From IMG/VR virus record IMGVR_UViG_3300037840_000333, positions 1 through 64,000 of that record: 64,000 nt of DNA. One strand, 5' to 3'. Source of the DNA: a virus. The position numbers were made by a program, and so were the translations under genes. Below, piece after piece: positions 9,450-57,800 of this stretch (within the stretch, counting starts at the first letter, position 1; each line of letters begins with the position of its first letter). The notes under the pieces are model-generated. The model ran no database searches. It worked only from the letters and a program-made list of their open reading frames with translations, and had not been told where the DNA came from.

Positions 9450-9486
9450 ACCCTACCGCGGATGCGCGCCGATTGCTAGCGTTTGG
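9450..9486 (-). promoter_or_regulatory. Conserved promoter, copy 1
   Basis: CCAAACGCTAGCAATCGGCG, then TAGGGT 18 nt after CTAGCA. Confidence 0.75.
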
Positions 9487-13206: not shown

Positions 13207-13243
13207 ATTCTAGTCCGGATCACCGCCGATTGCTAGCGGTTTG
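13207..13243 (-). promoter_or_regulatory. Conserved promoter, copy 2 (leaderless)
   Basis: CGCTAGCAATCGGCG, 18-nt spacer, TAGAAT, ATG 6 nt downstream. Confidence 0.8.
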
Positions 13244-13255
13244 TCATACAAACTC

Positions 13256-13798
13256 TCAGGTCAGCGCCCAATCGAAGTACCCGAGGGCCCGAATCTCCCT
13301 TGCGAGCTGAGCCGTCGGGGCGGTGGCGTCGAGGGTCACGGCGTGGTCGTGCCAATCGTGCGCCAGCTTCAGGAACTTGGTCCGCCGGCCCTTCACCCAC
13401 CCGGGGTTCTGCTGGCTCCCTCGGCGCGCTCGCCGGTCCGCCGCCACGTCGCTCGGGGCGTTGAGGACGACCAGCCGCCACTCGTCGCACCACTCGGTCA
13501 TGGCCTGGAAGAACCTGCCGTTCGCCAGCCGGTCGCCCTCGCCGAACACGAACGGCGTCGGGGCCTGGCTCAGCCAGTCGATAGCCCGGGGCAGCACGCT
13601 CATGCTCAGCCGGTCGGTGCCGGGGTAGTGCGGGTCACTGCCGCCGATCTGTGCCGCCTGGGGCCGCCCGTCGTCGCTGAGGTAGACCGCATGGGCGAAC
13701 GGGGTGTAGCGCCACTCGGGGTCGGTGCCGGCGGTGAGAGCGGCCACGAGGGCGCTCTTGCCCACGCCGGGCTCGCCGATGAAGTAGAGCCCGTTCAC
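13256..13798 (-). CDS. P-loop nucleotide kinase, putative 5-hmU-DNA kinase
   Basis: Walker A GEPGVGKS, GTDRLSM, FGEGDRL, RRARRGSQQNPGW; next to the AADT and PLP genes. Confidence 0.8.
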   Translation of the reverse strand: MNGLYFIGEPGVGKSALVAALTAGTDPEWRYTPFAHAVYLSDDGRPQAAQIGGSDPHYPGTDRLSMSVLPRAIDWLSQAPTPFVFGEGDRLANGRFFQAMTEWCDEWRLVVLNAPSDVAADRRARRGSQQNPGWVKGRRTKFLKLAHDWHDHAVTLDATAPTAQLAREIRALGYFDWALT

Positions 13799-14739
13799 AG
13801 TTCCGCCATCGCCGCGGCCGTCGGCTCGCTGCCCACGATCCAGAACAGGGCGGTGCCGTCGGGCTCCCACCACCAGTCGAACGTGTCCCGGCGGAGCTGC
13901 ATGTACGTCAGCGCCTTCCCTTCGTAGGTCGGGTGGAACGTGATGCCGTCGAGGGTGAACGGCATCCGGTCCTGGTAGGTGGCGAACTTGGTCGTGTGAA
14001 GGTCATGCCGCTCGATCCGGGGCAGGTCCAGCGTCTCGCCGGTGGCCTTCTCGATCGCACCCAGCCGGTCGGCCGTCCACTGCTCCCGGTTGGGTCCGAC
14101 GCCGATCAGGACCACCCGCTCCAACGCCGGGGGCCGGTGCCGGTGGATCCCGTACAGCACGCTGACGCAACTGTTGCAACTGCCGGCCGTCATCACGAGC
14201 GTCCGCACCGTGGTGCCGGGGACGTTCGCCACCTGGGCCGCGCCGACCGCATGGAACGCCTCGACCTCCTCGGGGCTGGCGGTGTCGGGCGTCGTGATGC
14301 CGTAGTGGAGTCGGTACCAGCCGGCGAACTCGGGGCGCTTCGCCAGCTCGGCCACCGCTCGCTGCAACGCCGGGTTGTAGGCGACCGGGTTGAAGATGAA
14401 CTCGGCGCCGGCCCGGTGGGCGATGGCGACGTTCTCGTGCTTCAGGGCGCTGGCGCCTCGGGTGGCGCCGAGGACGACGACGCACTCCATCCGGTGCTCC
14501 CGGGCCACGAGGGCCGCCATGCTGACCTGGGGGCTGCGCACGCTCGCCCCGGTGAGTATCCCTGGGGCGTCGCCGGCGTAGGTGGTCACCAGGTGCACGA
14601 GCTGGCGCAGCTTGCTCCCGTTGATGCCTCCGTAGCCGAGCGGGGCGGCGTAGTCGTCCCGCTTGTACCAGCGGCCTCCTCGGGACTCGACCGGCGTGAG
14701 GTCGGTGCCTAGCTTCGACCAGGAGATCATTTTCACCAC
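13795..14739 (-). CDS. PLP-dependent fold-type II enzyme (ACC deaminase/D-Cys desulfhydrase-like), putative DNA-linked amino-acid decarboxylase
   Basis: YKRDD..GGINGSKLRQ (PLP Lys), TAGSCNS, HPTYEGKA, LFWIVG. Confidence 0.85.
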   Translation of the reverse strand: MVKMISWSKLGTDLTPVESRGGRWYKRDDYAAPLGYGGINGSKLRQLVHLVTTYAGDAPGILTGASVRSPQVSMAALVAREHRMECVVVLGATRGASALKHENVAIAHRAGAEFIFNPVAYNPALQRAVAELAKRPEFAGWYRLHYGITTPDTASPEEVEAFHAVGAAQVANVPGTTVRTLVMTAGSCNSCVSVLYGIHRHRPPALERVVLIGVGPNREQWTADRLGAIEKATGETLDLPRIERHDLHTTKFATYQDRMPFTLDGITFHPTYEGKALTYMQLRRDTFDWWWEPDGTALFWIVGSEPTAAAMAEL

Positions 14740-14832
14740 GGCGTACCATCTTCACAGCCCGATTCGCGGCCGTCGGCGGGGCTCGGGCCGGCGTTCTCCA
14801 AGACCACCAGGCTCACCACCGGCCACCAACCT

Positions 14833-15888
14833 TCACAGTCGGCGCGCCGCCGGCGCCTCGCCGGTGTCGATGGCCAGGTTGAACGGGTTGCTGTAGAGCC
14901 TCGGCCACGCCCGGTGCATCATCACCGGGCAGCCGTGCTCCCGGTAGTAGTTCTGCTTCGCCGGCACGCAGCCCGGGTCGTGGGGCACGTCCTCTAGGCG
15001 CAGGTACGGGGGCAGGCACGCCCGCCTGGCCTCCCACAACACATCGAAATCCTCGAGCCGGTGGCGCCGCTCGGCCTTCCGCAGCCGGTCGAACAGCAGG
15101 TCGTTGTAGACGTTCGGGTAGCGCCGGTTCGGCCGGTGCCAGCTCTTGTAGGTGCAGAGGGCGCTCTCCATCGTGAAGTAACCCACGTCCGGGTGGTCGA
15201 TCTTCTCCCGGGCCTCGGCGAGCAGCTTCTCGCCCTCCTCGGTCAGCATGTCGATGGTGTCGTCGTCGTAGCCGGCGAACCCTGGGTTGCTCGGGTGCCA
15301 GTCGAGGTCGTCGCGGCCGAGGACGATGGCGAGCCCGTTGCGGTGGCTGCGGCTGCCCGGTATGTCGTCCATGAACAGCGTGTCGCACTCGACCGGCACG
15401 CCCATGATGGCCAGGTACTCGCTGAAGCTGAACGCGCTGAGCCGGCCGAACGTCGGGATGGCCGTCGCCACGTCCCACACGCCGGAGAATCCGCCCTCGG
15501 CCGCGCCGTGCCACAGGGCTCGCTGGCTCCCAGCTCCACGGACGAGCTCGGCGTAGCCGGCGACCGCCTGGGGCAGCGCCTTGCGATGGTGCCGGCGGTC
15601 GGTGTCGAACTCCAACTCGGGCCGGTGGGCGTCGAACCACTGGCACAGCTCGGCCGCCTGGGCGATGGTCGGGAATCGCCGGTGGAGGATCAGGCTGGTC
15701 GCCGGGTGCTGGGTGTTGCCGTTGAGGAAGGCGAACCACAGCGCCTGCTCCTCGTCCCATCCCAGCCGGTCCCGCAGGTAGGGCATCAGGTAGTACACGG
15801 CGCCCGGGTGGCTCCGGTGGGTCAGGTGGAACTCGTAGAAGTGGAGGAACGTCTGCCGGCGGTGCTCGGGCTGCCGGTAGTCGGTCAC
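14833..15888 (-). CDS. aGPT-Pplase2-like amino acid:DNA transferase
   Basis: WFAFLNGNTQH, FDTDRRH, FGRLSAFSFSEYL, GSRSHRNGL, FTMESALCTYKSWHRPNRRYPNVYND. Confidence 0.85.
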   Translation of the reverse strand: MTDYRQPEHRRQTFLHFYEFHLTHRSHPGAVYYLMPYLRDRLGWDEEQALWFAFLNGNTQHPATSLILHRRFPTIAQAAELCQWFDAHRPELEFDTDRRHHRKALPQAVAGYAELVRGAGSQRALWHGAAEGGFSGVWDVATAIPTFGRLSAFSFSEYLAIMGVPVECDTLFMDDIPGSRSHRNGLAIVLGRDDLDWHPSNPGFAGYDDDTIDMLTEEGEKLLAEAREKIDHPDVGYFTMESALCTYKSWHRPNRRYPNVYNDLLFDRLRKAERRHRLEDFDVLWEARRACLPPYLRLEDVPHDPGCVPAKQNYYREHGCPVMMHRAWPRLYSNPFNLAIDTGEAPAARRL

Positions 15889-16718
15889 GCCATCAGCCCG
15901 CTCTCACGCTGGCGCTCGATCAGGGTGTCCTCCCGCTCGCTCCGGGTCACCCGGGCCTGCTGCATCTCGGTCTCCACGTCGAGGCACTGCGCCATCCTGG
16001 CCACGGTGTAGTAGACGCCGGTGTAGCGGTAGCCGTCGGGGTCCTTCCGGCGGATCGGCGTCACGCCGTGCAGGGTCTCGTAGGCGGGCATGAACAGAAG
16101 GTCGCCGTCCCGGCAGGCGAGCACCTGGCGGTACTGCGGTATGTGCAGGTGGCCGCCTCGGGTGCCGCGCCGCATCGTGAACATGGCGTTCCACGTGGGC
16201 AAGTTGTTTTGGTCGTAGTGGTAGGGCAGGGGGCTGGTCTCGTTCAGCACGCCGCTGGTCCACTGCGTGCCCCGCATGCGCCACTCGGGCCGGATGATGT
16301 GGGCCCGTTCCTGGTCGATGCGCGCCCGGTCGGGGTGGTGCTCCTCGAATGCCCGGCTGAACTCCCAGGCCATGTCGGTGAGGATGCCGTGGGCTCCGGG
16401 CGCCTCGATGCTCCCGCTGCACTCCCGGCAGCCCTCCCGGCGCAGCACGGCGTTCCGGCTGGCGTAGCCGAACACGTTGGACTTGTTGCGCACGCCGCTG
16501 CTCCGCAAGGTGGTGCTCATCGGGTAGGCGATGCACGCGCCACGGAGCCGTGTCTGCAGGCGCTCGGGTATGTGGAGCACGATGGCGAGCGGCCGGCCGG
16601 TCTCGCTGTCGATCAGCTTCGCCTCGCCCTCGGTGGTCGGCTCCATCTCAGGCACCGTCTCGCGCAGCAGGTGGTGAACCTTGGCCTTCGCCACCTGATC
16701 GCACTCGATCACCTTCAT
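15885..16718 (-). CDS. TET/JBP-family 2OG-Fe(II) dioxygenase, putative thymine hydroxylase
   Basis: WTSGVLN..PYHYD (HxD), GGHLHIP, LHGVTP (distal His), RYTGVYY (2OG-binding Arg). Confidence 0.85.
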   Translation of the reverse strand: MKVIECDQVAKAKVHHLLRETVPEMEPTTEGEAKLIDSETGRPLAIVLHIPERLQTRLRGACIAYPMSTTLRSSGVRNKSNVFGYASRNAVLRREGCRECSGSIEAPGAHGILTDMAWEFSRAFEEHHPDRARIDQERAHIIRPEWRMRGTQWTSGVLNETSPLPYHYDQNNLPTWNAMFTMRRGTRGGHLHIPQYRQVLACRDGDLLFMPAYETLHGVTPIRRKDPDGYRYTGVYYTVARMAQCLDVETEMQQARVTRSEREDTLIERQRESGLMA

Positions 16719-17371
16719 GCCGCCGGATGCTCCTCGTCGTACTCCCGCAGCATTGCCACAAACAGCTCGGCGTTGCTCGGGGCCTCGTAGTGCCGGCGGG
16801 CTCGGTGGGCCATCGCCGCCACGTAGCCGTACTGGTCGAGCGGGTAGTCGAGGACGAGGCTGCGGACCTGGGTGTTGCGAGCGTTGCCGGCCGCCGGGGC
16901 CGCCGGGGCGCTCTCCTGCAGCTTGGCGTAGAGGTCGTCCACGTCGTCGGGCAGGTAGCCCACGCCGTCGAGCCCTGGGCCGCGCTGCAGCTCCCGTAGC
17001 CCTTCCAACAGGGCCGGCCCATCCCAGCCGGCTATCTCGGTGAGCCGATTGTCCGCCACCAGGTAGGCGTCGGCCTCGGCGTCGTCGGTGCTGGCCCACC
17101 CTCGCACCACGGGCACCTTCCACACGCCGTCCCGGTCGGTCTCGATGCCCTCGGCCGGCGTGGCGCCCGCCTTCATGTCCACCTGCAAGAGCTGGGTCCG
17201 GCCGTGTCCGGCGACCAGCCGGCCGGTCCGCTCGTCGAGGATGGCCGGGACGGTGAAGCCGAAGCGGTCGAAGCTGGCCCGCAGCATGTCGAGGTCGTGC
17301 CTCCTCGGGTTGCGGAGGGCGGGCACGAGCGTGTCGATCCGCATCATTTCCAGCCGGCGCTCCTCGCTCAT
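16715..17371 (-). CDS. ParB-like (ParB/Srx fold) protein 1
   Basis: NPRRH..SFDRFGF..LVAGHGR..AYLVADNRLTE..GWD; C-terminal RHH-like domain. Confidence 0.9.
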   Translation of the reverse strand: MSEERRLEMMRIDTLVPALRNPRRHDLDMLRASFDRFGFTVPAILDERTGRLVAGHGRTQLLQVDMKAGATPAEGIETDRDGVWKVPVVRGWASTDDAEADAYLVADNRLTEIAGWDGPALLEGLRELQRGPGLDGVGYLPDDVDDLYAKLQESAPAAPAAGNARNTQVRSLVLDYPLDQYGYVAAMAHRARRHYEAPSNAELFVAMLREYDEEHPAA

Positions 17372-18084
17372 GCCGGGTGCTTGCTCTCAAACTGGCGCAG
17401 CATGGCGATGAACAGCTCGGCGTTCGTCTCCACGCCGAACGTCTTGCGGGCCCGGGCCGCGGTGGCGATCACGTATTCGTACTCCTCGACCGGGTGGTCG
17501 AAGATGATGCTGCGGAGCTGCTTGTTGCGGTAGTTGTCGGCCCGCTCGCCGTAGCTGTTCTCCGTCTCGCTGGTCGGGTCCGGCTTCGCCGGTTCCAGCA
17601 GCTTCGCCATCGCCGCCGGCGTGAAGCCCGTGCCGGCCAGGCCGAGGTCGCCGGCCTCCAAGGGGGTCAGCATCTCGTGCAGCTCGGGGTTATCCCAGCC
17701 ACCCAGCTCGGTCTGGCGATTGTCGGCGATCAGATAGGCCATCGCCTCCTCGTCGTCCCGGCTGGCCCAGCCCCGGGTGACGGGCACCAGCCACTCGATG
17801 TCGTCGGGGTGCTCGGGGTCGTCGGGTACGAGCGTCCGCACGCCCTCGGGTGGGCTGGCGCCGTCGGCGTGCATCTGCGTCAGCAGCTCGTAGCGGCCGT
17901 GGCCGGCGGCGATCAGCCCGGTGCGCTCGTCAATCAGGATCGGGTTCGTGTACCCGAAGCGGTTGAAGCTCTTGCGCAGCTCGGCCGGTTTGTGGGTCCT
18001 CGGGTTGCGCGGGTGGGGGCGCAGCTCGCCGAGCGGCATGTGGGCGATCCGCCGCCCGGTGAGCGCCGCGCCCTTCCCCCTCAC
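17368..18084 (-). CDS. ParB-like (ParB/Srx fold) protein 2, paralog of protein 1
   Basis: NPRTH..SFNRFGY..IAAGHGR..AYLIADNRQTELGGWD; same C-terminal NAELF domain. Confidence 0.9.
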   Translation of the reverse strand: MRGKGAALTGRRIAHMPLGELRPHPRNPRTHKPAELRKSFNRFGYTNPILIDERTGLIAAGHGRYELLTQMHADGASPPEGVRTLVPDDPEHPDDIEWLVPVTRGWASRDDEEAMAYLIADNRQTELGGWDNPELHEMLTPLEAGDLGLAGTGFTPAAMAKLLEPAKPDPTSETENSYGERADNYRNKQLRSIIFDHPVEEYEYVIATAARARKTFGVETNAELFIAMLRQFESKHPA

Positions 18085-18577: not shown

Positions 18578-18997
18578 TCAGGACGCTAGCAAACGAGGCT
18601 CCCAGCCGAACGTCCTCGGGGCGTGCTCGGGCTGGTGGATCCAGTTGGCGACGTCCTGCCAGTCGTCGGTCGGGCGGAGCACCCACACCCGGGCCGTCGG
18701 AATGGCGGCGAAGCCGGCGAGCCACGTGAGCTGGTCGGGTTCCACCCGGCCCTTGGCGCCCTTGCACTCGATCACCACGAGCCACTGGTCGCGGATGGCG
18801 ACGAGGTCGGGCCAGCCGACGGCCGTGGTGCTGGTCCGCCAGCCGCCTCGGGGCGTCTGCATCCGGTAGACGTGCTGGTACAGGTACCGCTCCGCCTTCA
18901 GCCGGTCCTCGATGGCGGTCTGCCACTGGCGCTCGGTGAGCGGTGCCGGCGTGGAAAAGAGCTGGGCGCTCGCCGGTAGCCGGACGACACGCCTCAT
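18578..18997 (-). CDS. VRR-NUC (PD-(D/E)xK) nuclease
   Basis: GWPDLVAIR..IECKGAKGRV..DQLTWL..WVLRPTD. Confidence 0.85.
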   Translation of the reverse strand: MRRVVRLPASAQLFSTPAPLTERQWQTAIEDRLKAERYLYQHVYRMQTPRGGWRTSTTAVGWPDLVAIRDQWLVVIECKGAKGRVEPDQLTWLAGFAAIPTARVWVLRPTDDWQDVANWIHQPEHAPRTFGWEPRLLAS

Positions 18998-19335
18998 CGC
19001 TGCGCAAGCCCGAGGGCGTCGGCTTCCTTCGGGTGGTCCTCCACCCAATCGTTGTGGAAGGGGCAGGCGGTGATCCCGTTGTCCTCGGTGTACTGGCCGC
19101 CGTCGTGAGGCTTCCGCAGGTGGTGGTAAGTCAGCTCGCCGGGTGGGAAGCAGCTCGTGTCGGGGAGGAACGGGGCGATGCGGCAGCAGTGGCCGTCCCG
19201 GGCGAACACCGCCTCCCGCACGAGGTCCCGCTCAGGCTTCTCGTCCCGGCGCTTGTCGCTCACCCGCTTCAGCCCTCGGCGCCGGCGCTTCTCCCGCTTC
19301 GGGGGTTTGGGGATCGGGGTGACCTCGGGGCTCAT
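18994..19335 (-). CDS. HNH endonuclease-like protein
   Basis: VFARDGHCC..HHLRK..GG..DNGITACPFHN. Confidence 0.8.
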   Translation of the reverse strand: MSPEVTPIPKPPKREKRRRRGLKRVSDKRRDEKPERDLVREAVFARDGHCCRIAPFLPDTSCFPPGELTYHHLRKPHDGGQYTEDNGITACPFHNDWVEDHPKEADALGLAQR

Positions 19336-21141: not shown

Positions 21142-21740
21142 CGCTTGCTCGCCTGGTGACGGGCCCGGCGCTCCCGGCACGCCCTGGCCTTGCAGCGGCA
21201 CGCCTTGCCGCCGTTGCCGGGCATGAAGTGGCCGCCCTGCCAGAGGTCGTGCTGCTCAGGCCGGCACAGGCTGCACGGGCGCACGTCGGCCGGTGCTCCG
21301 AAGTTGGGCGAGTCCACCGATGGGTCGGTGAGGTACACCCAGCCACCGGGGTCGTCCTCGGTCGCTCCGCACTCGGGGCAACTCTCGCCCGGCGCCCGCT
21401 CGGCCGGCGGTGGGGCGTCAAGGGTGCGTTGCTTGCTTGCCACCAGCGTCTCAAACTCGGCCAGCGTCGGGAACTCGGCGCCCGCGGTCCTCACCCACTC
21501 ACCGGCGGCCGTTGTGATGGCTTCGGGCTGGTACTCGATCAGGGAGGTCACCCAAAGGTCCCAGGCGTCATCCTGGTCCCAGGCGTAGGGCAGCCGCAGG
21601 CTCGCCCCTCGGAAGATCCCGAAGGCGGCCTCCACCGCTGCCCCTAGTCGCTCGCCCGCCTCCCGCCGGGCCCTGGCCTCGCCATCGAGCGGGCCAAACA
21701 GCGCCTTATCACTCAGGTCAAGTGGTCTCGGTTCGTTCAT
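21138..21740 (-). CDS. Putative helicase loader/inhibitor-like replication protein
   Basis: Directly after the Rep gene; W..L..Y..W...FPTLAEF motif plus CxxC pairs. Confidence 0.55.
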   Translation of the reverse strand: MNEPRPLDLSDKALFGPLDGEARARREAGERLGAAVEAAFGIFRGASLRLPYAWDQDDAWDLWVTSLIEYQPEAITTAAGEWVRTAGAEFPTLAEFETLVASKQRTLDAPPPAERAPGESCPECGATEDDPGGWVYLTDPSVDSPNFGAPADVRPCSLCRPEQHDLWQGGHFMPGNGGKACRCKARACRERRARHQASKR

Positions 21741-22543
21741 CTTCCTCCTCCTCGGGCCGCCCGCATGCTCTCGCGGAGCGGTCGGTGCGGTCGGTTGCTC
21801 GTCGGGTCCGGGCGCTTGCCGTTCCGCCGGGCCGGCAACGGGTCGTCGTTCCATCGCTGGCCGTTGAGCCACGTCGCCGGGTGGCAGGTGTACTCGTCCT
21901 CCCGGTTCGGGTCATCCCGGTAGCGCGCCGCGCCGGCGACGATGGTCGCCGCGTCCGCTACCCGTAGCGCCTTGTCCCACGCTCGTCGGGCGTCGGCCTT
22001 GGCCGTGTGCCTCGGGTATACGGGCCAAAAGCAGGCATCAAAGGTCGGGGGCGGGAGGGTGACCGTGACGTCTCCGTCGTGGGCCATGAGCACAAGCTTT
22101 TGTCTTTCCTCTGGCTCTCGTTCTCTCTTGCTTTCCTTCGTCGCGCTGCTGAGCGCGCCGGTAGGCCCGCTGGTCTGCGCGCCCTCCGTCGCGCTGTTTG
22201 GCGCGCCCGTGGCCTGGGGCGCGCTCCCCTGCGCGGTCCGCACGATGTAGGAGCAGCTCGTGAAGTTGCCGGTGTGCGGGTTCCGGCGCTGCACCCGGCT
22301 GACCCATCCGGCGTGCTCTAGCTCGGCGATGAATCGGTTGATCGACCGGGGGGACTTGCTGATCAGGGTGGCGATGCGCTCGTGGCCGGGGTAGCAGTTG
22401 TCCGGGCGCTCGCCGTGTCTCAACAGGACTCCATACACCCGTACCGCCTCGGCGCCCACGTTCGGGTCGTATAGCAGGGCCTCGGGGATCTGCGCGTAGC
22501 GCGGTCCCTCGATGGTGATGGTGCTATGGCACGGCTCAGGCAC
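21737..22543 (-). CDS. Replication initiator (HTH Rep-like)
   Basis: N-terminal HTH (CYPGHERIA..ELEHAGWV); C-terminal FWPVYPR..K..HPATWLNGQRWND. Confidence 0.85.
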   Translation of the reverse strand: MPEPCHSTITIEGPRYAQIPEALLYDPNVGAEAVRVYGVLLRHGERPDNCYPGHERIATLISKSPRSINRFIAELEHAGWVSRVQRRNPHTGNFTSCSYIVRTAQGSAPQATGAPNSATEGAQTSGPTGALSSATKESKREREPEERQKLVLMAHDGDVTVTLPPPTFDACFWPVYPRHTAKADARRAWDKALRVADAATIVAGAARYRDDPNREDEYTCHPATWLNGQRWNDDPLPARRNGKRPDPTSNRPHRPLRESMRAARGGGR

Positions 22544-22975: not shown

Positions 22976-24264
22976 GACGCCGGCTCCGCCAGCCACTCGC
23001 GCATCCGGGCCGCCGTGAGGCGCTTGCCGAGGGCGTCCACGTTGCCGCCGACCTTCAGGCTTCGGGCCCGCAGCTCGGCCTTCAGCTCCTCGGCCTTCAT
23101 CAGCTTTACCTCGCTGATGATGTCATCGGCCACCTGGGGCGGTACGCCGTCGGGGATGGCCTCCTCGTCCCCTGGGGGCGGCAGGGCACCTTCCGTGGGG
23201 GGTTGGGGCTCGGGTGGGGCTCCGTCCGCTCCTGGGGCCGCTGAGGACGGCTCCTGGGCGTCCGGCGTCGGTAGCGTCGGCTGCTCGGGCTGGCCCTGGG
23301 GGGCGTGCCGGTCGGCGGTCTCCTGGGCCGCCTCCTGGCTGCTCGCGTCCCGGCACTCGACCAGCAGGGCTCGGTACTCGGCCACCTGGACCTTCTGCAC
23401 CGGCAGCGGGAGCACCTTCGTCGGGTCGGCCGGGTCGGTGTACTCGTGCTCGATGCACCACGCCCGCACCCTGGCTTTCTGCCGCTCGCTGGTGATGGCC
23501 TTCAGAATGTCCCGCAGGCTGGCGCTCACGCTGCGTAACTCGTCCTCGTCGGTGTAGCCCAGGTCCCGCCAAACGGCCGGGGTCGGGGGCGCCTGGTCCT
23601 CGGGGCTCCCTCGCCGGGCTGGCGGCGTGCGGTCGTCGCCCTCGCTCTCCAACAGGTTCTTGCTCCACAGGCTCAGGGCCACGCCGAAACGCATGGCGGC
23701 GTTGCGGAGGGCGTCGCCGATGAGCTGCTTCTCGGCGTCGAACTTTCTGCTCTCGACGCTGCCGAAGCCCTTCCGGGTGATGCCGCCGACGGTGAGCGTG
23801 ATCCACAAGCCGATGGGCTGGCCGTCCCGGTCCCGCTCAAAGTGGGGCGGGCTGTTCTCGATGAGCTGGTCCATCAGGAGCGGCTGTATGGCGTGCTCGG
23901 CGCTCGCCACCGCGGCCAGCGCGGCGGGGTCGATGTCCCGGCTGAGGAAGTCCCAATCCCACCCGGGGTCTACGTTCAGCAGGCGGTCGGTGACCTCGGC
24001 GTGCCCCACGTAGTCAAGGTGCATGTGGGCCGTGGTGATCCAGTTGCCGCACAGTTGGCACTCCCGCTTGGCGTGGTCGGTGCAGACCTTCCCCTGGGCG
24101 TCCCGGCACTTGAAGCACGTGATCCTCGGCAGCTTCCCGACCTGGGCCTCGGCGAACGGGGCCCGCAGGGCGGAGAGCATGGGCACTAGCTCGCCGTACT
24201 GCTCGGCCGCCCACGTGCTCGGGGCGGTGCCGTTCTGGCTCTCGGTGGTGGTGGTCTCGGTCAC
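22972..24264 (-). CDS. Rad52/Sak-like single-strand annealing protein with C-terminal SAP domain
   Basis: LRAPF..LDYVGHAEVTDRLLNVDP..IGDALRNAAMRFGVALSLW; MKAEELKAELRARSLKVGGNVDALGKRL. Confidence 0.85.
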   Translation of the reverse strand: MTETTTTESQNGTAPSTWAAEQYGELVPMLSALRAPFAEAQVGKLPRITCFKCRDAQGKVCTDHAKRECQLCGNWITTAHMHLDYVGHAEVTDRLLNVDPGWDWDFLSRDIDPAALAAVASAEHAIQPLLMDQLIENSPPHFERDRDGQPIGLWITLTVGGITRKGFGSVESRKFDAEKQLIGDALRNAAMRFGVALSLWSKNLLESEGDDRTPPARRGSPEDQAPPTPAVWRDLGYTDEDELRSVSASLRDILKAITSERQKARVRAWCIEHEYTDPADPTKVLPLPVQKVQVAEYRALLVECRDASSQEAAQETADRHAPQGQPEQPTLPTPDAQEPSSAAPGADGAPPEPQPPTEGALPPPGDEEAIPDGVPPQVADDIISEVKLMKAEELKAELRARSLKVGGNVDALGKRLTAARMREWLAEPAS

Positions 24265-24965
24265 TGGTCGTCCTCCTCGGTGGTGAGTGTGATGCTGAAT
24301 CGTTCCTGCACGGGCTCGGCGTAGACGACGCCGGGGACGCTGACGGTCTCGGCCTTGAACTCGCCGGTCTCCAAGTTGGCTCGAGGTGCCGTCTTCGCCA
24401 TCAGGCGCCACGTCTGGACTAGCTCGCCGCCGCGCTCGGGGTCGTTCACCTGCACGCCCTCGTGCCGGGTGATCTTCTCCTCGTCGGCCAGCTCGGCCTT
24501 GCGGATATGGGGCTCGTAGCGCAGCAGGTCCTCGCGGCCGTTGGCCTTGCACCAGGCGATGAACGCCTGCTCATCGGTCACGAGGATCTTGCCTCGGCCT
24601 GGCTTCCGTAGGGCCAGGGCGCCGTTCGGCAGCTTCAATGTCTTGGTCCTCGGGTTGGCCCGCAGCCACGCCCGGTGGAACGCTTCCAGTGAGGTGCCGA
24701 TGCGCTCCTCCTCGCGCTCGATGCCGCCGGTGCGGTCCCGCTCCCAGCGGGTGATGTCCTCCCGGCGCCGGGTCGCCAGCTCCATGATCTTGATGGCCTC
24801 GGCGCGCAACCGGCGCCGCTTGTAGAGCAGACGGTCGGCCATGTCGGCGTCCTCCGCCGGCAGCACGACCTCGTGGTCGGGATCCTCGGGGTCCGGGTGC
24901 TCGACGGGGACCTCGATGGCGAGGTACTCATCCAGGTCGGCCTCGATCAGCTCGTCGTCCGGCAT
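24261..24965 (-). CDS. Mu Gam-like host-nuclease inhibitor / DNA end-binding protein
   Basis: Coiled coil followed by KTLKLPNGALALRK; next to the SSAP gene. Confidence 0.75.
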   Translation of the reverse strand: MPDDELIEADLDEYLAIEVPVEHPDPEDPDHEVVLPAEDADMADRLLYKRRRLRAEAIKIMELATRRREDITRWERDRTGGIEREEERIGTSLEAFHRAWLRANPRTKTLKLPNGALALRKPGRGKILVTDEQAFIAWCKANGREDLLRYEPHIRKAELADEEKITRHEGVQVNDPERGGELVQTWRLMAKTAPRANLETGEFKAETVSVPGVVYAEPVQERFSITLTTEEDDQ

Positions 24966-25007
24966 ATGCAACTCCTGTCCGTGGTTGGTCGGGTGCGCCA
25001 ATCGCTA

Positions 25008-42319: not shown

Positions 42320-42356
42320 ACTCTACTCCCTCCGGTCGCCGATTGCTAGCGTTTGG
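42320..42356 (-). promoter_or_regulatory. Conserved promoter, copy 3
   Basis: CCAAACGCTAGCAATCGGCG, 18-nt spacer, TAGAGT. Confidence 0.8.
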
Positions 42357-43653: not shown

Positions 43654-43690
43654 ACTCTAGTCGCTCGGTGCGCCGATTGCTAGCGTTTGG
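43654..43690 (-). promoter_or_regulatory. Conserved promoter, copy 4
   Basis: CCAAACGCTAGCAATCGGCG, 18-nt spacer, TAGAGT. Confidence 0.8.
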
Positions 43691-43968: not shown

Positions 43969-44005
43969 ACTCTAATCGCTCCGCCCGCCGATTGCTAGCG
44001 TTTGG
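43969..44005 (-). promoter_or_regulatory. Conserved promoter, copy 5
   Basis: CCAAACGCTAGCAATCGGCG, 18-nt spacer, TAGAGT. Confidence 0.8.
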
Positions 44006-51720: not shown

Positions 51721-54687
51721 TCAGGCCCGGATGGACTCCGCCCGTGCTCGCAGGCGCTCCATCGCCAACCCGAACACAGGGCGTAGCCCTCGCTCCATCC
51801 GCTCTAGCCGCTCCTCGATGGTCGGGGTGTGCAGCTCCTCGGGCAGGTGGAACATGGGTACGCCGGCTGCCACCAGTCGGGTGACCTCGCCGCTGTGCGG
51901 GTTCTTGGTCGCCATCACCATCGGGAACCCGGCGTTGTTCACGAACAGCACGTTCGTCAGCTCCCGGCCGGCTCCCCACGGGCGCCAATCGCCGCTCGGC
52001 GGGTTGGCCCGCAGGGTGAACACCTGCTCCTCGGTGGCGCTCGGGTGCAGGGCACCGTGGATCCAGATGCCGAACTTGTCCTCGCCGGCCCGCACGAGGG
52101 CGGTCGTCAGCCCGCTGTTGTCGTAGTGGGCCATGGCCCGGTGGTAGTCCATGCTCTCGCCGGCGTGGCCGGTGTCCGCCGTCATCCGTCCGACGCCGAT
52201 GATCTGGCCCTCGGCCGTCACCACCCGTCCGTCACCGTGGAATCGCTCGTAGTTGCTTCGGCTCCTCGGCGCCATGATGCACTGGCCGTTGTTGAGGAAG
52301 GCGGGCGACTGGTGGCACACGCCCCACTGAGCGATGTGGCCGAAGACCTCGCCCTCCTCCGTCACGGTGATCGGACAGGCGAACTTTCCGCTCGGCTTGC
52401 CGGTCTTCGGGTTCACGGTCTCGCCCACCCGGGGGTCGCCGTCGATGAACGCCGGGTCGTCGAACCACACCGACGGGGGGTGGAGCAGGCTCGGGCCCTG
52501 GGCCGTGACGCTGGCGACCAGCGCCTCCTCCTCCGCCTCGCTGCACGGCACACAGGGCTCCTCGTCCACGTAGCGGATCGCCATCTGCGCCTCCGCCGGC
52601 GCCTTCGGCAGCGTGCCCTCGGGCACGTTCGTGCCGTCGCCGAGGACGATGAACGCGCCCTCAAAGGCAGCGAACGGGCAGACGGTGATGCCCATTACCT
52701 GGCCCTCGACCAGGTGGTCCATCAGCGGCACGTCGAACACGTCCACGCCGGCCTCGACAGGTCCGGGGGTCGTCTGCACCGTGGCGTTGCCCACGTCGAT
52801 GCTGACGCCCATGCGCCCCATCTGCTCCAAGATGCCGGCCCACTCCACGCCGTCGTCGGTGGTGAGCAGGTGGCCCGTCGCCTTTCCGGTCGTCCCGTCC
52901 CGCTCGATAGCGTCCACCCGGCCGATGAGGACGGCCGGATCGTTCGGGCTGAATCCGCTCGGGTCGTGGGGGCTCGTCTTCAACCCCATCAGGGCCAGCG
53001 GGGGCGTGCGCCAGGTCAGCCCGCTCGTGTCGGGGGTCGGCGCGTCGATCATGCGCCCGTCGCCGGTCGGCGCTCCCTCGATCCAGGCCACCGGGATCGT
53101 GAACTGCGGGCCGAGGGTCATGCTCGGGGTCGGGTCGAGCGGGGGCAGGCCCGTGGGCTCGGGCGGCATGGCCGGGGCCTTGGGCGGTCCGTCGGAAGGT
53201 GGCGGGGGTGGCGGGGCGAACGCCTCCGCCTCGGCGCCGGCTTTCTCCTCACCCGCGGCGACGGGTGCCGGGGTCGGGGCCACGTCGGGCTGGCTCACCA
53301 CGTCACCGGCCGGGATCATGCCGGGGCAGTTGCAGCTCGTGCAGGGTCCACTGTTGCCGCCTAGCTCGGGGTCGTCCTCGTGCTCGGCGCCGGTGTGGCC
53401 GCACTGCGGGTTCTGGCAGATTTCGGCGTCCTCGATGTCGCCGGGCCCTGGCCCGTTGTCATCGGCGTCGTTCGGCACGCCGTCGGCGTTGCCGGGGGTC
53501 GTGTTGCCGCCGGGGGTGGGGGCGAATCCCGTCTGGCCGTTCGTGCTGGCCGCGGCCGGCGGTGGCGGTGGCGGGCCCTTGGCCGGCGGTGGGGGCGGCG
53601 TGGGTGCCTTCGGCGGTGGCGGTGGGCCCTTCGTGGCGTCGGGCTCGCTGGCGTCGGCCGCCTGGTCGGTCACCACGCCGTCCATTATCTTGCTGGCCTG
53701 CTCCAACCCGGCGAGGACCTTGGCGTCCTTCGGATCGCTCTTGGAATCCGGGTCGCCCTGCTGCAGCTCGACAGCGTGGTCCACGGCCGCCTTGGCCGCG
53801 GCCACGGCCTCGGTGATGGTGCTGTCCGCCTTGGCGTCCGCTGGGGAGCCCGGTGCCGCCTTGTCGGGCGGGGCTGGGGGTGTTGGCGCCTTGCCGCCCG
53901 GCGGGGGCGGAGGGGCAGCAGGAGGGGCGTGTGGCGGCGGAGGGGGCGGTGGAGCGAACTGCGCCAGGAGCTGGCCGCGCTCGTCGTCGTTGAGGTCCGC
54001 GAGCCGCTGGGCGAACTCCTCGACCTGGGCGCTGGCCTTCAGGCTGCCGTCGCTGTTCCAGTTGTCGGGGATCTTGCTGGCACACCCGAGGGAGCTGGCC
54101 CGGGACATGATGTGCTTGCGGATGGCGTTGTGGCCGGCGCTCCCCCGGCCCACGGCGCTGATGGCGGTGCTCACGCTGTTGTCGCCGTCGCAGGTAGTGA
54201 TGGGATAGCTGCCATCGGGCATGGCCGCGCCACTGCTCGCCGCCTTGTCCCGCTCGGCCTGGCTGATGAACGTCCAGTAGGGCTCGGTGCCCAGCCGCTC
54301 CCGGGCCTCGGCCGTTACGGCTTCGTAGCTGGCCTGCAGCTCGACGGCTAGGGCCTCGGCCTGCTCGGCGGTGAACGACGCAATCAGCGCGTCTCGGGTC
54401 ATCGGCATGGCGGCATTCTCCCCCATCTTGGTTGCGGTGTCACGGACGGTATGGTCCTCGCTCCCGGCCGGCCCTCCGCACACGCTGATGTGCCGAAGCT
54501 GGCAGAAGCCCTCGGGGCTGTCGAGGTGCTCGGACATGACGCTCACGCAGTCATCGAAGTCACCCGGGCTGCACCAACTGATCTGGCCGTCGGCGCCGTC
54601 CTCGACCCACTTGATGAGCGGTGCCGCATCGCCGCCGGCGAAGGCGGCCATTACCTCGTCAGGTGGTCGGCGGGCTGGCGTCGTCAC
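51721..54687 (-). CDS. Capsid maturation protease with multidomain N-terminus
   Basis: EGAPTGDGR..GVSID..AFEGA; GHIAQWGVCH; VRAGEDKFGIWIHG; SGDWR; N-terminal WCSPGDFDDC and MPDGSYPI modules and Pro-rich linkers. Confidence 0.85.
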   Translation of the reverse strand: MTTPARRPPDEVMAAFAGGDAAPLIKWVEDGADGQISWCSPGDFDDCVSVMSEHLDSPEGFCQLRHISVCGGPAGSEDHTVRDTATKMGENAAMPMTRDALIASFTAEQAEALAVELQASYEAVTAEARERLGTEPYWTFISQAERDKAASSGAAMPDGSYPITTCDGDNSVSTAISAVGRGSAGHNAIRKHIMSRASSLGCASKIPDNWNSDGSLKASAQVEEFAQRLADLNDDERGQLLAQFAPPPPPPPHAPPAAPPPPPGGKAPTPPAPPDKAAPGSPADAKADSTITEAVAAAKAAVDHAVELQQGDPDSKSDPKDAKVLAGLEQASKIMDGVVTDQAADASEPDATKGPPPPPKAPTPPPPPAKGPPPPPPAAASTNGQTGFAPTPGGNTTPGNADGVPNDADDNGPGPGDIEDAEICQNPQCGHTGAEHEDDPELGGNSGPCTSCNCPGMIPAGDVVSQPDVAPTPAPVAAGEEKAGAEAEAFAPPPPPPSDGPPKAPAMPPEPTGLPPLDPTPSMTLGPQFTIPVAWIEGAPTGDGRMIDAPTPDTSGLTWRTPPLALMGLKTSPHDPSGFSPNDPAVLIGRVDAIERDGTTGKATGHLLTTDDGVEWAGILEQMGRMGVSIDVGNATVQTTPGPVEAGVDVFDVPLMDHLVEGQVMGITVCPFAAFEGAFIVLGDGTNVPEGTLPKAPAEAQMAIRYVDEEPCVPCSEAEEEALVASVTAQGPSLLHPPSVWFDDPAFIDGDPRVGETVNPKTGKPSGKFACPITVTEEGEVFGHIAQWGVCHQSPAFLNNGQCIMAPRSRSNYERFHGDGRVVTAEGQIIGVGRMTADTGHAGESMDYHRAMAHYDNSGLTTALVRAGEDKFGIWIHGALHPSATEEQVFTLRANPPSGDWRPWGAGRELTNVLFVNNAGFPMVMATKNPHSGEVTRLVAAGVPMFHLPEELHTPTIEERLERMERGLRPVFGLAMERLRARAESIRA

Positions 54688-54829: not shown

Positions 54830-57800
54830 CTATCCCTGCAACCCGGCGATTTGAGCTATCTGCTGCGCTTGCAGCCACAAGTCGTAGTAGTTGGCCGTCT
54901 GGCCCTCGGACACCAGCGCCTCGGGCAACAGGCTGTTGTAGCGGGCCTCGGCCGCCTCGACGCTGGCGCTGTAGGTGTCGCCGAACTCGGGGTCGCTGGT
55001 GATCGGGACGGCGCTGTCGATGATGTCGGCCAGGGAAGCCATCTCGCTCTCGTAGTCCTGATAGCTCATCTGCCAGATGCTCGGTCCGCCGGTGCCCTTC
55101 AGCTCCCGCTCCGCCAGGTCGAACGCTTCGGATTTCTGCGCCTCGCTGAGGTACGCCGTCGCCTCGGCCTTGTTGGTGAACAGGCTCTTGACGTCCACGT
55201 TGCTGTTGGCGAGCTGATTCCAGTTGAAGTTGCCGAACCGCTCCAAGTTGTTCGGCACCCGGCCCGTGTTCTCCAACAGGTTCCCGGCGTCCACGATCCG
55301 GGTCTGATCGAGCCAGTAGGACATGGCCTCGTCCACGTTCGCATCGCTGCCGGCGCCGGTCGCCACCTGGAAGCCGGCCACCAGCTCGTCCGGCTTGGCG
55401 AGCGTGCCGGTCGTGTCGGGCAGCATCCACCCGTTAGTTCCCAACCGCTCCTGCTCGGACAGGGAGAGCTGGCGATACCAGTCGTAGGTGCCGCTCGTGT
55501 CGCCTCGTGCCGGCGTGGCGATGACGTTCGCGCCCATGCTCTCGATCTGCCCGTAGGCGGTGTCCCGCGCCTCGGTGATCTCAGGCATCAACTCCGCCTT
55601 GGCCGCCGCGAGGTCGGAGGAGTCGGTGTCACCGTTCAGCAGGTCGCTCACGGCCTGGCTCAGGTAGCTGCTCCCGGTGTCGGCGCTGAAGTCGGTCGTG
55701 GGCTCGCCCTCCTCGCCCGTCTCCTCGCCCTCCTCGCCGGTGTCGCCGCCTTCCTCGCCGGTATCGTCGCCGGTGTCGGCCGGACCCCACACGGTGTTGA
55801 AGTCACACGAGCAGCCGTCGTGGTCGCCGGGGAAGAAGAAATCGTTCTCGGGCCAGTCGTCCGGGTTGGCGAGCACGTCGTCGGTAAAGCTGGCGAACGA
55901 TTCGCCGTCGAGGTCCTCGTGGGGCTCAAACGGCCGCAGGGTCGGCCCGTGCACCCACTCGTAGCTCACGGCCTCGACGTCCGGGGCGGCGTTGAGCATG
56001 TCGGTCACGGCGTCGCCGGTGCCGATCTGCCCGGCCACGTCGGTCGCCTCAAACGTCGCGCTCACCTGAGCGCTCTCGGGGTCCTCGCCCACCTGTATCG
56101 GATTGTCCGCACTCACGTCGGTCACGTCCACCGGCTCGTCCATGGCGCCCACGTCGGCGGTGAGTCCCTTCCCCTGGCCGCTTCCGCCGCCGGCGATGGC
56201 GAGGGCGCGCCTTACCGCTCCCACGGGGACGATGGTGTTCGGATCGATGGTCGGGGCGTCGGGAGCGGTCGGGCTCGGGTTGTATAGCAGCCCCTCGGCG
56301 ATGGTGTTCAGCTCGTCCACGAAGCTCTGCCAAGCCGGCTGCAGTGCCGTCGCCATGCGCTGCTCCGCCTTCCGCACGGCCGGGCTGGTCATCTGGTAGC
56401 CGGCCAGCCTGGCCGCGCTGCGCAGGGCCGCATGCTGGGCAGCGTCGGTCCACCCGAGGAACTGGCCCTTCAGCTCGCTCCAATCCGGGTTGAGCAGGGC
56501 ATGGGGGTCGGTGTAGCCGAGGCTCGCCACGACGGCCTGACCGAGGTTCTGCGCCACCTGCCGGTTCGGCACGCCTTGCACCTGGCTCCGCAGGCGGTCG
56601 TCCTTGTTGAACTTGCGGCTGGCGACCCGGGTGTGCAGCTTCGCTCCCGCCCTGTCGAGCAGCCGCACCATCGCGCTGCACGCCGCCACCTGGATCTTGG
56701 CCCGGAGCTGGGCGTCGAGCTGGGCCAGGTTCCGGCTCTCCCGGGCGTACATGGTCTGGCGCTTCGCCTTGGCCTCGGCGAACGCCGCATCGACCTGCCG
56801 GGCGAGCCCGGGGACGCTCGGGCTCGGGGGTGTCGCGGCCGGCGTCGCCGTGACGCTCGGTGGGGGCGGTGGCGCCGGGCTGGTCGTGTCCGCTGGCCCG
56901 GGGGGCAGCGCCGCGGCCGGCCCGGTCGGCAGGGGTTCCACGGCGCCCTTCGGTCCCATGCCCGGCACCTGGCCGCTCTGCTGGATCGGCGGGATCACGA
57001 GGTTCGGGTCGAGGGCGTGGATCAGGGCCTCCAACACGTTCGGCGGGAAGCTCCGCAGCTTCTGGATCATGCGGATTTCCTTCTCCAACGCGTCCGGGGC
57101 GTCCTCCTCGGTGAATCCGCCGGCGTCCCGCAGGGCCATGTCGCTGATCGCCATGCGGTCGTGCAGCAGCACTGCGTTGCCCATCGGGTCCGGCTTGCTG
57201 ATGAGGTCCACCGGGTTGTACCAAATGCAGGCCCGGTCGATCCAGTACTTGTTGTGGCCCTTCGCCAGCAACCACGGCCGCATGAAGGCGATGGTCATGG
57301 CGTCGGCCTGGGTGATGACCTGGGGCTCGATGTGGTGGCGGAACGTATCGTCGCTGACGAGCCAGGCGCCCCAGTGGTTCGGGTCGCTCATGCCCTCTAG
57401 GACCTCTCGGGGCACGTCGAGCCCGGTGGCGAGCCGGCCGATGGCCTCCGCCCGCAGCTCCAAGGCCAAGCTGCTGTACGGCCGGTCGATCACCAGGTGC
57501 TCGAGCCCAGCGAGGCTCTCGGGCTCGCCGCTGATGGCGATGGGCACGACGGCGCTCGCCACTCCCTCGTCCGCCAAGGGGGTCATCATCGCCTCGGCGA
57601 ACTTGCCGAACCACGAGTCGTTGAGCCCCGTATCGTCGTCCTCGGTCATGGCCTCCATGCGGAGCCCGTCGGGGATCTTCAGGATGCCGCCGCCGGCGAG
57701 CCGGCTCCTCGCCGTCGAGCGGACGTCCCGGCTCAGCAGCATCAGCTCCTCGCTCACGTCGAGGAGGCTGCGCATCGGGCTGGTGGCCATCTGGCTGAAC

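Follow-up and report, generated by a model that had tools for sequence, protein, structure and literature searches.

A six-gene operon in an IMG/VR phage genome is predicted to hypermodify thymine in finished DNA, starting from a ParB-associated TET/JBP dioxygenase

We analyzed a six-gene module at positions 13256-18084, minus strand, of a 64,000-nucleotide stretch of DNA from an uncultured phage (the window), which is the first 64 kb of the 87,120-bp IMG/VR record IMGVR_UViG_3300037840_000333 (CheckV completeness, 92%; G+C content, approximately 70%). An initial annotation had read the module as six co-oriented genes in the order ParB, ParB, TET/JBP dioxygenase, transferase, pyridoxal phosphate (PLP) enzyme, and P-loop kinase, and we found all six in place and in that order. 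The module very probably hypermodifies thymine after replication by way of 5-hydroxymethyluracil (5hmU). We are nearly as confident of the pathway as a whole, that is, a dioxygenase-started and ParB-aided route of the type known from Salmonella phage ViI. The design of a TET-fed pathway is already published and partly validated; the locus is a new example of it, not a new principle, and leaves the current picture of phage DNA modification unchanged.

In the pathway we propose, the phage would replicate with host enzymes and ordinary dTTP, and the whole modification would take place after replication, encoded by one self-contained operon. The dioxygenase, with one or both ParBs, would first hydroxylate some of the thymines in double-stranded DNA, yielding 5hmU, with Fe(II), 2-oxoglutarate (2OG), and O2. 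The P-loop kinase would next phosphorylate the 5hmU hydroxyl to give 5-phosphomethyl-U, the transferase would swap this phosphate for the side-chain oxygen of serine to give O-seryl-thymidine, and the PLP enzyme would decarboxylate O-seryl-thymidine to 5-(2-aminoethoxy)methyl-uracil. The likely role of the modified base would be protection against host nucleases. The first step has been shown for other ParB-associated phage enzymes and is predicted here by analogy. The third and fourth steps have been shown for ViI homologs, to which the proteins of the window are 27% and 36% identical, and by that likeness would also apply here. The second is assigned from context, and the kinase belongs to a different Pfam family than the characterized 5hmU DNA kinases. 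One intermediate in the initial annotation had to be replaced: it had the kinase make a pyrophosphate (5-PPmU), and the characterized pathways give the monophosphate 5-phosphomethyl-dU (5-PmdU) (PMC8989533).

The genes of the module are closely packed on the minus strand, which is the coding strand for almost the whole window. ParB1 (17368-18084) reads from a GTG start (238 aa), with an alternative ATG at 18039 (223 aa). ParB2 (16715-17371; 218 aa) adjoins the gene for the TET/JBP enzyme, an Fe(II)/2OG 5-methylpyrimidine dioxygenase (5mYOX) of 277 aa (15885-16718). The amino acid:DNA transferase (AADT, formerly aGPT-Pplase2; 14833-15888; 351 aa) follows, then the fold-type II PLP enzyme (13795-14730; ATG start, 311 aa) and the kinase (13256-13798; about 180 aa from a GTG that overlaps the stop codon of the PLP gene, in a frame open to 13873). 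Read from the sequence, 4-nt stop/start overlaps occur at five of six junctions, including that between the upstream gene and ParB1. The overlap is GTGA at the upstream gene/ParB1, dioxygenase/transferase, and PLP enzyme/kinase junctions and ATGA at the ParB1/ParB2 and ParB2/dioxygenase junctions, and the sole gapped junction (approximately 95 nt) lies between the transferase and the PLP enzyme.

The limits of the operon are marked by a repeated element and by its neighbors. The promoter-like 15-mer CGCTAGCAATCGGCG has five exact copies on the minus strand (9467-9481, 13224-13238, 42337-42351, 43671-43685, and 43986-44000), with 0.25 expected and five copies reached in 0 of 100 shuffles, and one copy lies 18 nt past the kinase stop codon, closing the operon. 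Genes flanking the module are not kept beside it in related loci. From these two observations, we take the unit to run from the ParB genes to the kinase. A megablast search of 50,697 phage records with the 4.8-kb region as query gave zero matches.

The dioxygenase, which starts the pathway, matches phrog_6059 (E value, 1.7e-53) and has the iron-binding triad HxD...H and the 2OG-binding arginine. Across 23 homologs, H163-x-D165, H213, R227, and C241 are invariant (numbering of alignment A1; full-length numbering is +4). The AlphaFold2 (AF2) model of the protein (predicted local distance difference test score [pLDDT], 92.3) was matched by Foldseek to TET-family structures at all of ranks 1 to 26, among them CcTet, CMD1, hTET2, and NgTET1 (E values, 6e-12 to 2e-9; probability, 1.00; template modeling [TM] scores, 0.54 to 0.64), with FTO and AlkB ranking below; a phmmer search against PDB sequences returned no match. 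Past C241, the last conserved cysteine, the protein continues for 32 helix-forming residues, with a modeled C-terminal helix at 244-268, and such an extension has been reported for ParB-dependent dioxygenases only (O'Toole et al. 2026, PMC13229309). Neighboring ParB genes and the C-terminal extension, the pair of features that mark out the ParB-dependent T-dioxygenase subclass (clade C1), are both present. By analogy with that subclass, the protein is predicted to oxidize thymine in DNA to 5hmU in a ParB-dependent manner. The PHROG label of its family, "queuine tRNA-ribosyltransferase," is misleading for this enzyme.

Much of the first step is known from recent work on phage 5mYOX enzymes, which oxidize T post-replicatively in vivo and also in vitro (O'Toole et al., PNAS 2026, PMC13229309). 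According to the same study, one subclass requires a ParB-like activator on double-stranded DNA, oxidation is partial and context dependent (NTR for 5mYOX176), and ParB-dependent T-dioxygenases adjoin P-loop kinases as well as amino acid:DNA transferases; the oxidation step alone was tested there, and no whole pathway. Going by the published descriptions, the window shares with clade C1 (5mYOX176/ParB176) an upstream ParB, a dioxygenase of about 280 aa, the C-terminal extension, and the lack of a C5-methyltransferase. It also shares the ParB176-type architecture (a CTPase-type domain at the N terminus and a small domain at the C terminus, with no helix-turn-helix [HTH] domain) and the kinase and transferase neighbors. 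It differs in having two tandem ParBs that are 50% identical, whereas 5mYOX176 has a single cognate ParB.

The TET-fed design itself was put forward by Lee et al. (2021, PMC8989533), who found metavirome clusters in which TET_JBP replaces the deoxyuridine monophosphate (dUMP) hydroxymethylase and inferred that T is converted in situ to 5hmU, the substrate with which the pathway begins. Clusters 22-25 in their Figure 2 place TET_JBP beside hypermodification genes without a hydroxymethylase, as in the window, and none of these clusters is presented there as reconstituted. The initial annotation was thus correct that similar neighborhoods had been predicted computationally. Its statement that it knew of no biochemical description of this combination holds in part: we found no literature report that reconstitutes a whole TET-fed pathway or its final base, but ParB-dependent T-dioxygenases have since been shown (PMC13229309).

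If thymine is modified in finished DNA, the genome has no need of a special nucleotide pool, and the initial annotation had noted that the window encodes no recognizable hydroxymethylase, dCMP deaminase, DNA polymerase, C5-cytosine methyltransferase, radical S-adenosylmethionine (SAM) enzyme, or glycosyltransferase. This holds for the whole 87-kb record, including the rest of the genome, where a thymidylate synthase homolog or C5-methyltransferase might have lain. Across all 87,120 bp, there was no match to thymidylate synthase/hydroxymethylase (PF00303), ThyX (PF02511), C5-cytosine methyltransferase (PF00145), radical SAM (PF04055), family-A DNA polymerase (PF00476), dCMP deaminase (PF00383), or glycosyltransferases GT2 (PF00535) and GT1 (PF00534), and control genomes gave matches in every one of these searches. 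PHROG scans of large open reading frames (ORFs) recovered portal, capsid, tape measure, terminase, and endolysin and no DNA polymerase. The replication initiator expected from the initial annotation corresponds to a DnaD/initiator-like gene at 21737-22543 (phrog_270; E value, 5e-36). The absence of hydroxymethylase, C5-methyltransferase, and radical SAM genes from the 87-kb genome supports the view that the dioxygenase replaces a nucleotide-pool hydroxymethylase and that the pathway operates on finished DNA.

The next genes would determine what is attached to the hydroxylated base. The transferase matches Pfam PF18724 (ADDT; E value, 1.5e-18; 67.8 bits versus a cut-off of 26.2) over profile positions 20-230 of 232, and the same family is matched by the reference enzymes ViI gp247 and M6 gp51. 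By BLASTP, it is similar to gp247, the serine enzyme (E value, 3e-24; 27% identity), and has no significant similarity (E value, approximately 1 or higher) to M6 gp51 (glycine) or PhiW-14 gp109 (putrescine), which are related to each other (E value, 3e-19). The closest cultured transferase is gp3 of Mycobacterium phage Prince (49% identity). The PLP enzyme is 36% identical to ViI gp226 (E value, 2e-59), and its K40, invariant in 32 homologs, aligns in GINGSKLRQ with gp226 K92, the proposed Schiff-base lysine (Lee et al. 2021, PMC8989533). It has no BLAST similarity to M6 gp52 and no Pfam match, PALP (PF00291) included, at an E value of 0.01; gp226 itself falls below the PF00291 cut-off (30.7 versus 35 bits), and many homologs carry PF00291. 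Searched against PDB, a profile of the PLP family matched D-cysteine desulfhydrase and 1-aminocyclopropane-1-carboxylate (ACC) deaminase (E values, 7e-6 to 2e-4). At 311 aa, the enzyme is approximately 35 to 45 residues shorter than most of its more than 850 homologs (approximately 345 to 355 aa).

The two characterized routes differ in how the amino acid is attached. In M6, glycine is amine-linked, and a radical SAM isomerase must free the amine before PLP chemistry; in ViI, serine is joined by the oxygen of its side chain and is directly decarboxylated by gp226 (Lee et al. 2021, PMC8989533). The absence of a radical SAM enzyme fits a side-chain-linked amino acid whose free alpha-amine reaches PLP. 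With a transferase and PLP enzyme of the ViI type, and with no radical SAM match, the leading candidate is conversion of O-seryl-thymidine to 5-(2-aminoethoxy)methyl-dU (5-NeOmdU), the base of Salmonella phage ViI. The initial annotation had favored the same serine-derived product or a new base, and the ViI-type rather than M6-type character of the pair (glycine plus radical SAM) supports the serine-derived one. We put the chance that the final base is exactly 5-NeOmdU at about even, judging from sequence likeness. We also considered an M6-type glycine/radical SAM route and rejected it, as the genome has no radical SAM enzyme and the proteins have no BLAST similarity to M6 gp51 and gp52.

The ViI pathway (Lee et al. 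2018, 2021) consists of a dUMP hydroxymethylase, kinases gp67 and gp243, transferase gp247, and decarboxylase gp226. The window shares with it the Pfam family and branch of the transferase, a PLP enzyme with an aligned lysine, and the lack of a radical SAM enzyme. In ViI, however, 5hmdU enters through the nucleotide pool and a phage polymerase, whereas in the window it would be supplied by the dioxygenase, and no hydroxymethylase or polymerase was found. The ViI kinase gp243 belongs to PF18747 and the window kinase to PF18751, and the pathway genes are scattered in ViI but gathered in one operon here.

The kinase itself matches PF18751 (Ploopntkinase3) well above threshold (E value, 6.8e-26; 91.4 bits versus a cut-off of 27), with the Walker A motif GEPGVGKS, and is 35 to 47% identical to kinases that end other ParB-TET modules. 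PF18751 kinases close the modules of phages Prince, Wooper, Tonitrus, Kharcho, MO526, and Montesquieu and of most IMG/VR loci. M6 gp54 falls in PF18748 (HMUDK_HMUD1) and ViI gp243 in PF18747 (HMUD2), families named for 5hmU DNA kinases. Given its constant position at the module end, the window kinase may well be a 5hmU-DNA kinase that makes 5-phosphomethyl-U, although this is the least secure step. Literature searches on the Ploopntkinase families and on mycobacteriophage "thymidine hydroxylase" returned nothing useful. The kinase also matches phrog_800, misleadingly labeled "terminase small subunit," and the PHROG misnomers of the dioxygenase and kinase families are repeated in GenBank, both in mycobacteriophage records and in that of M6 gp54.

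We then compared the module with related loci. A search with the single dioxygenase sequence found none, and an alignment was needed: a dioxygenase profile found 145 IMG/VR relatives, of which 80 loci were examined. The order ParB(s)-TET-AADT-PLP enzyme-kinase was present in nine of the 80 (L020-L023, L027, L030, L070, L073, and L076), and because it recurs in nine independent loci, the six-gene arrangement is not due to chance. The transferases of these nine are 55 to 57% identical to that of the window, and the PLP enzymes 53 to 55%. The dioxygenase and kinase of the window are nearer to loci with other tailoring genes than to these same-order loci: identities are 43% (dioxygenase) and 47% (kinase) to L004 versus 37% and 29% to L021. 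These sequence comparisons point to a likely recombination between the ParB-dioxygenase...kinase frame and the transferase-PLP cassette. The closest homologs (64 to 69% identity) are on long contigs of 77 to 95 kb.

The general plan, ParB(s)-dioxygenase-[transferase plus variable tailoring]-kinase, also occurs in cultured phages of Mycobacterium, Gordonia, Rhodococcus, Microbacterium, and Arthrobacter, where SEA-PHAGES annotations include "thymidine hydroxylase," "Tet-like J-binding protein," and "5-hmU DNA kinase." In IMG/VR, the window dioxygenase has its closest relatives in two loci with other tailoring genes placed after the transferase and before the kinase: L004 (7852-9926) has an Asp/Arg-hydroxylase-like 2OG oxygenase, and L003 (7797-10760) has an amidoligase, a low-molecular-weight phosphatase-like protein, and a flavin adenine dinucleotide (FAD) oxidoreductase; these sets probably make other thymine derivatives. 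In cultured phages, the variable part is an FAD enzyme (Microbacterium phage MO526), a glycosyltransferase (Arthrobacter phage Altadena), the transferase alone (Mycobacterium phage Prince and Gordonia phage Wooper), or nothing (Arthrobacter phage Kharcho). The Prince-type module, with ParB, thymidine hydroxylase, AADT, kinase, and terminase, shares the ParB-TET-transferase-kinase plan. Wooper and Rhodococcus phage Tonitrus (PMC11955845) have the same ParB-TET-kinase plan as the window, and Kharcho, with two ParBs, TET, and kinase, has a tandem ParB pair as well. The transferases of Tonitrus, Wooper, and MO526 are M6-type, in contrast to the ViI-type enzyme of the window. No PLP homolog in cultured phage records exceeded approximately 36% identity, and none of the cultured TET-bearing phages inspected had a ViI-type PLP enzyme.

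In Glutamicibacter phage Montesquieu, transferase, PLP enzyme, and kinase follow one another as in the window and belong to the same families, at 41%, 32%, and 25 to 27% identity, respectively. The phage encodes a clade 2 AADT, an ACC-deaminase-like PLP enzyme, and two PF18751 kinases, plus a clade 1 AADT. Its module is fed by a thymidylate-synthase-like dUMP hydroxymethylase, whereas that of the window is fed by ParB and dioxygenase. The host of the window phage is probably an actinomycete as well, because its capsid protein resembles those of Gordonia, Microbacterium, Arthrobacter, and Streptomyces phages (36 to 38% identity).

Several points weigh against the ViI-type pathway as we have drawn it. 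Every step is assigned by homology or context, and with a record that is 92% complete, a relevant gene could lie in the missing 8%. The dioxygenase matches Pfam Tet_JBP (PF12851) weakly (E value, 0.006; 16.3 to 17.2 bits versus a gathering cut-off of 34.9). Among the profile hidden Markov models that the initial annotation named as checks, ADDT (aGPT-Pplase2) and the P-loop kinase family thus scored above their cut-offs, but Tet_JBP fell below and PALP gave no match; PF12851 is carried by 20 of 35 close homologs of the dioxygenase, and many phage 5mYOX members escape the model (O'Toole et al. 2026, PMC13229309). The kinase matches PF18751 only, not PF18748 or PF18747, and neither ViI nor M6 has a PF18751 member. 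With regard to the product, 27% identity to gp247 leaves the amino acid specificity of the transferase uncertain, the closest transferases, of the Prince type (49%), work without a PLP enzyme, and the PLP enzyme lacks an insertion that gp226 and most homologs have between the equivalents of residues 229 and 230.

Some of these last points also bear on the alternative that fares best, in which the pathway logic is the same and the final base is another one. The transferase could use a nonserine nucleophile (threonine, cysteine, homoserine, or an amine), or the PLP enzyme could catalyze elimination, replacement, or transamination instead of decarboxylation; in that case, the virion base would be something other than 5-NeOmdU and could be new. 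Besides the low identity to gp247 and the missing insertion, this alternative is favored by the range of substrates in the transferase family, whose members use Ser, Gly, or putrescine (Table 1 of Lee et al. 2021, PMC8989533), by the many chemistries of the ACC deaminase/D-Cys desulfhydrase fold group to which the PLP enzyme belongs, and by the permutation of related loci to quite different tailoring enzymes. However, the transferase, like the PLP enzyme, falls with the ViI pair rather than on the M6/PhiW-14 branch, and the transferase-PLP cassette co-travels in ViI-like phages, in Montesquieu, and in nine IMG/VR loci. That both genes travel as a cassette suggests a conserved, coupled transferase-PLP reaction. 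We regard a different final base as a possibility to be kept in view, though an unlikely one.

Of the two ParBs, ParB1 matches phrog_620 (E value, 1.9e-33) and phrog_723 (3.2e-25), and ParB2 matches phrog_620 (2.8e-27); for the pair against both families, E values range overall from 1e-20 to 1e-33. The two proteins are 50% identical to each other, and an Arg-rich motif, G55-H56-G57-R58 (GHGR), is invariant in 38 ParB sequences. Pfam, ParBc included, gave no match for either protein, full length or C-terminal domain, even at an E value of 10. For the AF2 model of ParB2 (pLDDT, 92.4), the best Foldseek matches were ParB-CDP/CTP structures from B. subtilis (6sdk), M. xanthus (7bnk), and C. crescentus (7bm8), followed by PadC, Noc, and KorB, and the M. 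xanthus and C. crescentus ParBs have been named the closest structural homologs (O'Toole et al. 2026, PMC13229309). The model consists of a CTPase-type N-domain, two linker helices, and a C-terminal extended segment with two helices (beta-alpha-alpha), and it has no HTH DNA-binding domain of the kind typical of partition ParBs. In ParB1, likewise, a short helical linker stands between a CTPase-type N-domain and a small C-terminal domain of beta-alpha-alpha form, and HTH is absent. Structural look-alikes of the C-terminal domain in the Atlas include RHH_1, NikR, and VapB clusters (TM scores, 0.56 to 0.63 over approximately 50 residues), which weakly suggests a ribbon-helix-helix (RHH) fold.

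By analogy with ParB176, ParB2, perhaps with ParB1, is a probable activator of the dioxygenase on double-stranded DNA. The ParBs are thus probably not bystanders, and we amended the initial annotation to give them this role. They could instead be partition proteins, nucleases, or regulators unrelated to modification, with a dioxygenase that works alone: ParB-like genes are common in actinophages (several PHROG families), and some clade C1 dioxygenases have no ParB neighbor (PMC13229309). We find this improbable, as a ParB gene lies directly upstream of the dioxygenase in 67 of 94 loci (the 80 IMG/VR relatives and reference phage records) and in the cultured phages inspected, the junctions have ATGA overlaps, the dioxygenase bears the C-terminal extension limited to the ParB-dependent subclass, the HTH domain of partition ParBs is absent, and ParB dependence has been shown experimentally for such pairs (PMC13229309). 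Least probable of the alternatives is a system directed at 5-methylcytosine (5mC) from the host or an unrecognized methyltransferase, with kinase and transferase decorating 5-hydroxymethylcytosine, which we rejected: clade A/B phage TET enzymes are described as oxidizing 5mC (Burke et al. 2021) and some in vitro 5mC activity is reported for tested T-dioxygenases (PMC13229309), but the 87-kb record has no C5-methyltransferase match, 5mC-type phage enzymes adjoin a C5-methyltransferase whereas ParB-associated ones do not and make 5hmU (PMC13229309), and the downstream enzymes are homologous to enzymes that act on 5hmU-derived bases.

The presence of two ParBs next to a probable ParB-dependent dioxygenase is a small feature that has perhaps gone unreported; O'Toole et al. 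2026 (PMC13229309) mention no ParB pairs, paralogs, or heterodimers in their main text. ParB1 and ParB2 each have their own orthologs on related contigs, and both are found on one 77,877-bp contig. In a maximum-likelihood tree of 47 ParB sequences, the window pair falls into two starred sister clades, of which the ParB1 clade includes the related-contig orthologs. The pairs of L021, L030, L035, L038, L050, and L063 fall in a different part of the tree, again in two starred clades, each holding purely "upstream" or purely "adjacent" copies. Because the pairs form separate starred clades by position, the tree indicates that tandem ParB pairs upstream of the dioxygenase arose by duplication at least two times independently, with gene order retained. 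L036 and L092 (Arthrobacter phage Kharcho) may add further cases, with weak support or long branches.

The repeated, independent origin of the pairs, the fixed positions of the paralogs, and a published literature on single cognate ParBs together led us to a further, speculative idea. ParB1 and ParB2 might form an obligate heterodimeric clamp whose C-terminal beta-alpha-alpha (RHH-like) domains read DNA and load the dioxygenase at chosen sites, or on phage rather than host DNA. We consider this doubtful; if true, thymine hypermodification would be sequence-programmed, not global.

A pathway independent of any special nucleotide pool or polymerase could in principle be moved to any host and would place a bulky cationic base on finished DNA. 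The compact operon is convenient material for the full route from T through 5hmU, phosphate, and aminoacyl intermediates to the amine, which has so far been shown piecemeal from different phages. The locus offers a complete, translationally coupled six-gene set, with a ViI-type transferase/PLP pair and a clear product prediction, and its natural two-ParB variant would be useful for asking what the ParB activator does.

Other genes in the record lie outside the unit. Upstream of the module are an HNH endonuclease (18994-19335) and a Mu Gam-like end-protection protein (24261-25001). In about a dozen related loci, homologs of the C-terminal part of the initiator-like protein lie upstream of the dioxygenase. 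A 1202-aa protein (54830-58438) matches portal proteins over residues 19-633 only, and in the adjoining 988-aa protein (51721-54687), matches to portal, protease, and virion proteins are confined to the C-terminal half; both thus have large extra domains. Four ORFs of 618 to 972 aa (genome positions 63482-72844 and 84267-86123, for the most part past the end of the window), which gave no PHROG match at an E value of 1e-5, sit between the terminase and portal genes and near the contig end.

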